Source: Abditibacteriaceae bacterium (lineage in GTDB: Bacteria > Armatimonadota > Abditibacteriia > Abditibacteriales > Abditibacteriaceae). Taken from it: a stretch of 47,683 nucleotides of DNA. Every line of letters begins with the position of its first letter. The first letter of the stretch is position 1. Shown piece by piece: positions 5,341 through 18,133 of this stretch. A program made the translations under genes and the position numbers. The notes beneath the pieces were generated by a model that saw nothing but the letters and a program-made list of their open reading frames with translations, did no database searches and was not told the DNA's origin. The stretch covers positions 1 through 47,683 of the forward strand of contig JANMKN010000341.1 in assembly GCA_031372065.1 (NCBI GenBank), written 5' to 3'.

Positions 5341-5577
5341 TAATTTTGTAAGCGTTTCAACTATCTAAAAATCTGTATTTGTGTTAAAAATGTAGTGTGT
5401 TCCCTTCGTCATAGGAACATTTACGCCAGCGCATAGCTCTAAATGGAAGTTTTGCGTCAATTATTGCATAGCGCGGCACAAGTTTGGCAATTTGTTTGTC
5501 TTACTGTAGCAAACAGTTTTGGCTTGCCGTAATCTGATGTAACCCGTAGACGCCTGTTTCGGGAGAAATTCACAATT

Positions 5578-16370: not shown

Positions 16371-16391
16371 TCTGCGCTAAAATGAAATGTG

Positions 16392-17264
16392 ATGTCTGAA
16401 ACGACTTTAGTAAATGGCTCAAAGCCAAATGTTTTATGGCGTAATTCGCTTTTGGCTGGCGATTGTGCGGCGATTTTGCCAAAGCTGCCGGATGAAAGTG
16501 TGAATCTCATTGTCACTTCGCCGCCTTACGCCGATTCGCGCAAAAGCGCGTATGGTGGCATGCATCCCGATGATTACGTCGAGTGGTTTTTGCCGATAAC
16601 GCATGAACTGCGGCGTGTGTTGACAAAAGATGGCTCCTTCGTTTTGAACATCAAAGAAAAAGTGGTGGACGGGCAGCGTCATACTTACGTTCTCGAACTC
16701 ATCTTGGCAATGAAAAAGCAAGGGTGGCTTTGGACGGAAGAATATATGTGGCACAAGAAAAATTGCGCGCCCGGCAAATGGCCCAATCGCTTTCGGGATT
16801 CGTGGGAGCGTTGCTTGCATTTCACACGGGAAAAAAAGTTCAAGATGAATCAGGAAGCGGTTATGGTGCCAACCGGTGATTGGGCCAAAGCGCGCTTGAA
16901 AAATCTTTCGGAAACCGATCAGCGCCGCGATAATTCCCGCGTGGGCAGTGGCTTCGGAAAAAACGTTTCCAATTGGGTTGGGCGCGACATGGCTTACCCG
17001 ACAAATGTTTTACACCTTGCCACCGAATGCTCCAACAAATCGCATGCAGCGGCTTTTCCGCGCGAAGTGCCAGCATGGTTTATTAAGCTGTTTTCCGACT
17101 CCGGCGATTTGGTTCTTGACCCTTTTGCCGGTTCGGGCACCACGCTTTTAGCCGCGCGCGAATGGGAGCGCGATTACTGCGGCATTGAACTTAAAGAAGA
17201 ATATTTTCAAATCGCGCTTGATAGCCTCAACACCGCGCCGCCTGTGCTTTTTGTGGGTGCATAA
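16392..17264 (+). CDS. Site-specific DNA methyltransferase, beta class (N4-cytosine/N6-adenine family), apparently orphan
   Basis: Catalytic motif IV VTSPPY precedes SAM-binding motif I VLDPFAGSGTT; HAAAFP is also present. SPPY suggests m4C. Start ATG 16392 (GTG 16389 is possible). Confidence 0.93.
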   Translation: MSETTLVNGSKPNVLWRNSLLAGDCAAILPKLPDESVNLIVTSPPYADSRKSAYGGMHPDDYVEWFLPITHELRRVLTKDGSFVLNIKEKVVDGQRHTYVLELILAMKKQGWLWTEEYMWHKKNCAPGKWPNRFRDSWERCLHFTREKKFKMNQEAVMVPTGDWAKARLKNLSETDQRRDNSRVGSGFGKNVSNWVGRDMAYPTNVLHLATECSNKSHAAAFPREVPAWFIKLFSDSGDLVLDPFAGSGTTLLAAREWERDYCGIELKEEYFQIALDSLNTAPPVLFVGA

Positions 17265-17285
17265 GCGAGGTTTTAGGATGTTTTA

Positions 17286-17446
17286 GTGAGAGAAAGACTA
17301 TAGTGGAAGTTAAACAAATTTCAAATGTAAGCCGTAAACTTGCCTATATATGTAAGAGACGAACTATAGTGGAAGTTAAACACATTTCAATTGTAAGCCG
17401 TCAACGCGCTTATATAGTAAGAGACGAACTATAGTGGAAGTTAAAC
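17286..17446 (+). CRISPR. Orphan CRISPR-like mini-array: 3 repeats of 30 nt and 2 related spacers (36 and 35 nt)
   Basis: GTAAGAGACGAACTATAGTGGAAGTTAAAC is identical at 17352-17381 and 17417-17446, with a 4-mismatch copy at 17286-17315. Repeat length, spacer length and the 3' end (..GGAAGTTAAAC) resemble class 1 (type I-B/III-like) repeats ending in ATTGAAAC. The spacers are 29/35 identical, so a plain 65-66-bp tandem duplication is not excluded. Orientation is inferred. Confidence 0.6.
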
Positions 17447-17475
17447 CCTGTAGAATGGCGTTTGAAAAACAGAAT

Positions 17476-17520
17476 AACGGCCCGTTTCACTTTTTGGTGA
17501 AGCGGGCCGTTGTGTTTTTG
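17476..17520. terminator. Intrinsic terminator downstream of the mini-array
   Basis: aacggcccgtttcac-tttttg-gtgaagcgggccgtt followed by gtgttttt. An A-tract upstream makes it potentially bidirectional. Confidence 0.8.
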
Positions 17521-17563: not shown

Positions 17564-18133
17564 ATGGGATGGACATCAATGATGGAGGACATGCAGGAAC
17601 GTTTGGACGAAGATCGTTACAATGCAGGGCGGTATAGGTCTGCAGATCAAACTGTGCACAAGGTGCATTCAAAAAAGGTGTCTTCAAATGTGAACCAGCC
17701 TGCAACCTGCAAAGCAGTTGCCGCTGTGAGCCAAGGCCGAAAGGAAGAGGAATCAATGGAAGAAATCCATAAGCTACGACGAGACAACGCTCTCCTTCAG
17801 CGTCGGTTGTTAAAGGCCCAAAATCGCCGGACGCAGGCGCGTTCCGAGGTATCGCGTCTTACTACAGAAAATGCACAGTTGCAGTCTGTCAATGCTGATG
17901 TGCAGCAGCAAATGGTAAGAATTCAGGCATTGTGCGCTCAATTACAACGTGAAAAGGATAAGGCTCTCAAGGAGCGTGATGAAGCTGAACAATCTCTGAT
18001 GGATGAATGGGCGCATCAAGATGGATTGATGATGCAACCAAGGGATAAGGTTGTTACGCGGTCATTTCGTGAATTACGCGGCGGTGCGGGCATAGCGAAT
18101 GGTAGAACGCGTAGGCGCTTAAAGTCACGATAA
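17564..18133 (+). CDS. Hypothetical coiled-coil protein with a basic C-terminal tail
   Basis: ATG 17564 follows GAAAGGGG. Central heptad-like helix (MEEIHKLRRDNALLQRRL...KERDEAEQ). Codon usage is visibly more AT-rich than in flanking genes. No catalytic motif recognised. Confidence 0.7.
   Translation: MGWTSMMEDMQERLDEDRYNAGRYRSADQTVHKVHSKKVSSNVNQPATCKAVAAVSQGRKEEESMEEIHKLRRDNALLQRRLLKAQNRRTQARSEVSRLTTENAQLQSVNADVQQQMVRIQALCAQLQREKDKALKERDEAEQSLMDEWAHQDGLMMQPRDKVVTRSFRELRGGAGIANGRTRRRLKSR

Follow-up and report, generated by a model that had tools for sequence, protein, structure and literature searches.

Several kinds of small CRISPR-like unit resemble the locus analysed here. The regulatory mini-array of a Moraxella osloensis prophage (Shmakov et al., 10.1101/2023.03.03.530964) belongs to type I-F1 and occurs together with its cognate cas locus; a PAM-flanked target has been predicted for it. 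Cracr arrays (Liu et al., 10.1101/2024.10.29.618823) are defined by their location on a phage or plasmid together with a seed match to CreR/CreA spacers or to cas promoters; they carry several spacers, which in some of them resemble one another, and are directed at variants of a single CRISPR subtype; they can be followed by a terminator, and those listed there are of types I-C, I-E and I-F. The CreR/CreA mini-CRISPRs (10.1101/2023.03.10.532045), known for type I-B, have one spacer and lie in a cas locus with a nearby target, and the repeats of CreR are diverged, the first being best kept where the 5′ handle comes from. Racrs, or RNA anti-CRISPRs (PMC10651486), occur as lone repeat units carried by viruses and plasmids, and orphan CRISPR arrays (PMC7145637) have no adjacent cas genes.

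The locus considered here lies in a stretch of 47,683 nucleotides (the window) from an Abditibacteriaceae bacterium, and is a real, CRISPR-derived mini-array without cas genes. Like the M. osloensis mini-array, as described in that report, it consists of three repeats and a pair of spacers that are largely identical, away from cas genes; unlike it, the unit is I-B-like and chromosomal, and our searches found neither a cognate cas locus nor a target. With the Cracr arrays, in the features described for them, it shares a multi-spacer crRNA-like layout, similar spacers (two variants of a guide) and a terminator after the array, but it is chromosomal and no seed match was found. It may work in a Cracr-like manner, yet its location places it outside that definition, and we file it only as a cas-less CRISPR mini-array. 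The first repeat (R1), as in the published account of CreR, is kept in the 5′-handle part, its four changes all falling within the first 11 nt (p = 0.012), though the junction described below explains this too; the two spacers, the full-length identical second and third repeats (R2 and R3) and the lack of a cas locus set it apart from CreR/CreA. It resembles the Racrs, so far as these are described, in being a cas-less repeat mimic that could bind Cas6, and differs from them as a three-repeat array on a chromosome. Orphan arrays of the published kind and the cas-less I-B arrays of relatives likewise lack cas genes alongside, in a lineage where I-B systems are patchy, but their repeats are canonical, their spacers unrelated and, in one same-genus genome (G002), a leader is present. 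The locus falls outside the adaptive arrays, with a gene stub in place of a leader, spacers that are 83% identical and no cognate cas genes found. Its layout is of a known kind, found in guide RNAs with which phages dampen CRISPR.

The features of the locus and its neighbours are collected in Table 1. An earlier note on this DNA had described three 30-nt repeats, of which R2 and R3 are identical and R1 carries four changes all in its 5′ part, two near-identical spacers, a hairpin beyond the last repeat, and no cas genes in the window; coordinates and alignments agree with this description throughout. R1 differs from R2 and R3 at repeat positions 3, 9, 10 and 11. The two spacers differ by six substitutions (positions 2, 10, 21, 25, 26 and 29) and one indel, spacer 1 having one additional base at its 3′ end. 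The arms of the hairpin occupy 17476-17490 and 17497-17511, with a terminator-like site called at 17474-17513, and a scan of 24 large ORFs of the window gave no match to a cas family. Beyond the outer edges of R1 and R3 the similarity breaks off sharply (24-27 mismatches per 35). Contigs of three runs from one freshwater-sediment study, one run being a possible source of the assembly, are identical over the mini-array region, with 0 other letters, which rules out an assembly slip. Chance does not account for the locus either. When the whole genome was scanned for exact duplications of 24-34 nt that stand alone around a 26-42-nt spacer, 12 rows resulted, comprising five from the resident I-E array, one from the mini-array locus and six others, and the spacer pair identity of 83% compares with at most 43% between adjacent spacers of three real arrays (60 pairs).

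Table 1. Features of the mini-array and its immediate surroundings (positions within the window).
Feature	Position	Strand	Remarks
Type II N4/N6 DNA methyltransferase, orphan	16389..17264	+	PF01555; PADLOC MTase_II
Promoter-like hexamer pair, weak	17251..17279	+	by eye; 7/12 consensus, 17-nt spacing
Dead 5′ stub of partner restriction endonuclease gene	17253..17285	+	relatives' profile; possibly up to 9 nt into R1
Repeat 1 (R1)	17286..17315	+	last 19 nt as in R2/R3; 4 changes within first 11 nt
Spacer 1	17316..17351	+	36 nt
Repeat 2 (R2)	17352..17381	+	30 nt, type I-B-like, unstructured (z = 0.36)
Spacer 2	17382..17416	+	35 nt, 29/35 identical to spacer 1
Repeat 3 (R3)	17417..17446	+	identical to R2
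Intrinsic terminator-like hairpin with T-rich tail	17474..17520	+	arms and terminator scan
Orphan 189-aa ORF	17564..18133	+	one long predicted helix (model helix 47-156)

By its sequence the array is of the type I-B-like CRISPR class. R2 is identical at 24/30 positions to the repeat of G062, a genome of the same phylum with an I-B locus, at 22/30 to the repeat of a phage array beside a cas6 gene, and at 18-20/30 to repeats from the family to which the host belongs, the same-genus repeat reaching 18/30; the earlier assignment to the class 1 repeats thus held. Among 400 genomes of the phylum, G062 alone matches the 22-nt repeat core within three mismatches, and its locus contains cas6, a DevR-type cas7, cas5, cas3 and cas1. 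Both spacer lengths fall inside the range of 63 real spacers, the class geometry being a 30-nt repeat with 33-39-nt spacers. In related leader-bearing arrays the leader lies on the side that makes the plus strand the RNA. The alternative that R1 is a trailer repeat and the minus strand is transcribed, which the earlier note had allowed, is therefore unlikely.

Several other identities for the repeats and spacers were tried and rejected. Promoter-like sites on the minus strand, one per unit, proved to be one duplicated site, and both spacers contain, on their reverse strand, a hexamer resembling a –35 element (5/6 and 4/6; controls 0 and 5 of 63), which was picked out post hoc and is only a hint. 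When a spacer was read as the repeat in inverted form, in the manner of a tracr or attC, 12/19 positions agreed (p = 0.09-0.10). An attC identity fitted by eye was too short for the attC size range, though the genome encodes an integron integrase. Five TnpB/Cas12f-like loci offered no repeat match better than 12 mismatches. In G062, a lone I-B-like repeat (L152:15829-15858, contig C1) was seen ~7 kb upstream of cas6, just ahead of a DNA-repair methyltransferase gene on the opposite strand.

The pattern of divergence bears on the past of the array. Between the first and second units, changes are spread evenly over repeat and spacer (4/30 versus 6/35, Fisher p = 0.74), and only the identity of R2 and R3 breaks this even pattern (0/30 versus 6/35 in the spacers, p = 0.027). 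Under neutral decay at the spacer rate, the probability of R2 and R3 remaining identical, together with the last 19 nt unchanged in all three repeats, is 0.0008-0.004. Such fixed repeats beside diverging spacers suggest past function, the history being either that the repeats were selected while the guides diverged, or that the spacers were captured separately from homologous sites. The spacer differences lack a codon pattern in any frame (at most 2/6 differing codons synonymous), which fits a non-coding target or drift and runs mildly counter to two coding protospacers. Spacer 2 folds as a hairpin (z = –2.9), and spacer 1 forms the same hairpin weakly (z = –1.0).

No homologous cassette was found in genome, virus or metagenome searches. 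The exact repeat core was not found in IMG/VR or in GTDB genomes, as expected if the repeat is a diverged pseudo-repeat, and there was no copy of the array in IMG/VR, PLSDB or INPHARED. A search of genomes and metagenomes for two copies of the core yielded 3 viral, 6 genome and 16 metagenome loci, none of them an array with this repeat: L018/L044, L034 and L040 are CRISPR arrays whose repeats differ from this one, the remaining loci being unrelated repeats. Two IMG/VR matches to a repeat-plus-seed pattern were not arrays, and two marginal matches from a BLAST search of the array against 400 genomes were unrelated. Rfam held nothing at gathering level for the array; a match to Pxr was terminator-driven and far below threshold.

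Some of the retrieved loci have features of their own. L018 (53-4900) is a 61.8-kb viral contig with cas6, three more cas-like ORFs and a long array showing drift in its later repeats, and the same array occurs on a 65-kb metagenome contig (L044). In the Bacillota locus L034 (5500-6700), an array with an I-B-like repeat directly follows a gene ending in a zinc-finger motif typical of Cas12f/TnpB, with a possible anti-repeat between the two. A palindromic intergenic Bacteroides element, not CRISPR, shares a 12-nt word with the repeat at L030, L031, L033, metagenome loci L036-L038 and others.

The search for targets, which the earlier note had proposed with every sixth position free, covered the genome, plasmids, phages and 400 genomes and returned only chance-level matches. 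In the organism's own genome the best full-length match had 9 mismatches in 35, in shifted register, and was taken as chance. Seed scans, run with every sixth base free and with mock (shuffled) spacers as control, gave no run beyond 13 positions there. In the 454 kb of 52 cas-linked loci, the longest runs had 13 and 14 positions, lengths reached by 3/60 and 1/60 shuffled spacers. The 14-run match, in the distant genome G069, lies 51 nt inside the cas6 coding sequence with 12 paired bases and does not extend; it is without the CC flank of the G017 unit described below, is equalled by 1/60 mocks, and was not accepted. PAM-flanked seed matches at cas or toxin promoters did not exceed the mock level in the own genome, in the 52 + 4 loci or in the 400 genomes, a sample in which the cognate locus may not be represented. 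The exact seed had 5 matches in the 400 phylum genomes versus 1 for the control, none seen as a cas promoter, and the family seed pattern (1 mismatch) had 38 non-self matches, of which 33 were inspected and none extended. The 21-nt spacer core had 0 matches in IMG/VR; a 17-mer had 27, all with at least 11 mismatches over the spacer, and the 6 inspected were in open frames. Spacer searches of PLSDB and INPHARED gave 1 and 4 matches, respectively (E = 6). Such a scan did find a CreR-like two-repeat unit in the family member G017 (L096; C86, ~5400-5560, minus strand), within a cas6-bearing locus. The spacer of this unit matches a site located 33 nt upstream of the unit's first repeat; position 6 is mismatched and the flank is CCA. 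Guide-target pairing is thus visible where present and, given this unit with its adjacent target, CreR-like circuits exist in the lineage.

Because no matching CRISPR proteins or target were found, the mini-array is most likely a stranded leftover. The specific account that we favour, tentatively and a little short of even, is an imported two-guide crRNA-like cassette with a regulatory or anti-CRISPR role, now partnerless. Its type I-B-like repeats would encode two variants of one guide, and the unit would have taken shape elsewhere, presumably on a mobile element or in another host, serving there in regulation or counter-defence in the manner of a crRNA. Cas6 would cut each repeat 8 nt from its 3′ end to give two ~65-nt RNAs with an 8-nt 5′ handle; these would load an I-B Cascade and, by partial pairing, repress two variants of one putatively non-coding target, or alternatively may soak up Cas proteins. 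The cassette would later have joined the chromosome at about codon 12 of the restriction endonuclease gene. In this organism it is probably dormant, since it has no leader and the assembly no cognate Cas proteins.

The match of the repeat to real I-B repeats, the 30/35-36 geometry, the unchanged repeats beside spacers that differ at 7 places, the retention of the 5′-handle part in R1, the spacer changes without a codon pattern, the failure to find the repeat core elsewhere and the CreR-like unit of a family member argue for the imported cassette. Against it stand the missing target, homolog and phage or plasmid context in our searches, the even divergence of units 1 and 2 (p = 0.74), the possibility that the R1 polarity is a junction effect, and the stand-alone I-B arrays and two-repeat units of relatives, which make a plain relic a live alternative. 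For the regulatory guide-RNA module proposed in the earlier note, the two-guide layout, with its published precedent, and the repeat constraint stood, whereas a Cascade acting in trans in this genome and a target did not. If the imported cassette is the true account, two-guide regulatory mini-arrays would extend to an I-B-like repeat, and one of them would be seen to have taken the place of a restriction gene on a chromosome; this is a small addition, as no partner, target or homolog was found.

The first alternative to weigh is that the locus is the tail of an ordinary adaptive I-B array, in which a single deletion, running from the start of the restriction gene into a repeat, took away the endonuclease together with the cas genes, leader and most of the spacers; the two that remain would represent the same site in two related invaders or an old duplication. 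The junction adds a new element: the mini-array sits on the dead 5′ stub of a restriction gene, the partner of the upstream methylase. An EcoO109I-like endonuclease (PF14511) comes next after the methylase in all 7 relative loci retrieved, but its gene was not found in this genome and no remains of it lie downstream of the array. The stub has lost its start codon and contains two in-frame stops, one of which now terminates the methylase. With a profile of six relatives' 5′ ends, 17262-17294 ranks 7th among the 95,302 positions of the window, just where the stub would be expected, and the summed local alignment has p = 0.004 against 3000 shuffles. Homology to the endonuclease is clear to 17285 and ambiguous over the first 9 nt of R1, so that the changes in R1 may be junction rather than decay; its polarity may equally reflect a degenerate first repeat. 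As the array follows directly on the stub, it has no leader of its own. Transcription would come only by read-through from the methylase or from the weak promoter-like pair, which lies inside the stub below the promoter-scan threshold, would start an RNA near base 1 of R1, and may be chance.

The array tail gains from this abutment on the stub, with its partial similarity across the junction, and from the spacers themselves, which are in register at the 5′ side and of unequal length at the 3′ side, as two captures at one PAM might be. Relatives add to it. The same-genus genome G002 (79% complete) carries a leader-bearing 13-repeat I-B-type array (L217, C28:29080-29910) between DDE transposase and recombinase genes, with no cas family in the six neighbours scanned and no Cas6 PF01881 match in the genome, and in G017 two more units of two repeats stand apart from the main array; stand-alone I-B arrays are thus not unusual in the lineage. 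The last repeats of the real arrays in G002 and G017 are intact. However, no real array with this repeat was found, the same-genus repeat matches at only 18/30, adjacent spacers in real arrays (60 pairs) never approach the identity seen here, the spacer differences are not biased to synonymous sites, and no protospacer was found. We regard the array tail as possible but unlikely. The two stand-alone units of G017 lie near 13387 of L218 (C35) and at L219 (C61:67220), the C61 unit ending right before a small ORF.

The second alternative, that the cassette is active through an I-B Cascade missing from the assembly, on an unbinned contig or a co-resident mobile element, is distinctly doubtful. The assembly (6.14 Mb in 410 contigs) is 93.9% complete, the repeats are intact and a terminator follows the array, all of which would suit it. 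Yet the sole cas system found in the genome is of type I-E, with an unrelated repeat (29-nt repeats, 32-nt spacers); two Cas6 families, DevR, Cas7 and RAMP gave 0 matches; and Cas1 and Cas5 searches and tblastn with relatives' I-B proteins matched at the I-E locus only. The search of the genome that the earlier note had suggested, for the repeat and a type I-B or III cas locus, accordingly found no such cas genes in the 93.9%-complete genome and no further copy of the repeat at 8 mismatches or fewer. Its proposal of action in trans on a Cascade elsewhere in the genome is not borne out, the I-E system being the only one found and no target having been found. Among relatives, family repeats match at 18-20/30, the family I-B repeat is present in 7/26 genomes and Cas6 PF01881 in 14/26 family genomes, and in 0/3 same-genus genomes. 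At the resident I-E locus, a WYL-WCX gene lies directly upstream of cas3 (L013:2750-3787; G000:C183).

A third possibility is that an old CRISPR repeat-spacer unit was simply duplicated in tandem, in steps of 65-66 bp, which gave a structure that was never functional as a pair. The even divergence of units 1 and 2 and the richness of the genome in short tandem repeats would agree, but the third copy comprises one 30-nt repeat and nothing more, its edges being sharp, and unchanged repeats are improbable at the spacer rate, making this origin very unlikely. Of similarly low probability is a role in the present host, which, lacking an I-B system, would have taken the cassette into the slot of a lost restriction enzyme and would keep it as an RNA anti-CRISPR that is cut by, and jams or redirects, I-B Cascades arriving on mobile elements; phage-borne arrays with cas6 and a 22/30-matching repeat do exist. 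The locus would carry far greater weight should hosts retain RNAs of this sort as a means of disarming CRISPR systems that enter them.

The surroundings downstream raise a further alternative. The array is followed by the orphan helical ORF, a second terminator and rpoB, and the context of the window is chromosomal (polA, ribosomal protein S1, rpoBC), the array lying beside the methylase, the ORF and rpoB and not in a cas locus; no phage or plasmid context was seen among the ORFs scanned round it. Same-genus genomes differ after the upstream oxidoreductase (3/3) and before rpoB (2/2 retrieved), so the spot is a variable one. The order of repeats, terminator and ORF is that used as a search rule for type III toxin-antitoxin systems in PMC12283969, and here about 2.5 RNA repeats and a terminator would precede a protein held in check by the RNA; the small hairpin that the spacers can form would also be in keeping. 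However, type III toxins are endoribonucleases, whereas this ORF is one long helix without a Pfam family or fold match, and is not a ToxN/TenpN/CptN-type ribonuclease by those searches. It has one homolog (57%), weak PHROG and PADLOC matches, and Atlas matches without names. With a CRISPR-like repeat as well, a toxin-antitoxin unit is a shade less probable again. A neo-array, made by off-target spacer integration at a repeat-like site, is scarcely credible: the repeat is unique and aberrant, as it would require, but the genome-wide scan showed no population of similar scars, the resident Cas1-Cas2 is of type I-E with its 29-nt repeats and 32-nt spacers, the flanks are not one gene continued across the array, and two similar spacers would be left unexplained.

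Elsewhere in the same genome, the integron integrase (L150; G000:C351:1800-3900) scores above the curated cut-off and is preceded by long duplicated palindromic units with an attC-type look. Many contigs carry tandem arrays, dozens in all, with periods of 20-21 nt or 42 nt. At G000:C122:5568-5660, an exact 30-nt duplication flanks a 33-nt insert, possibly one off-target spacer insertion.
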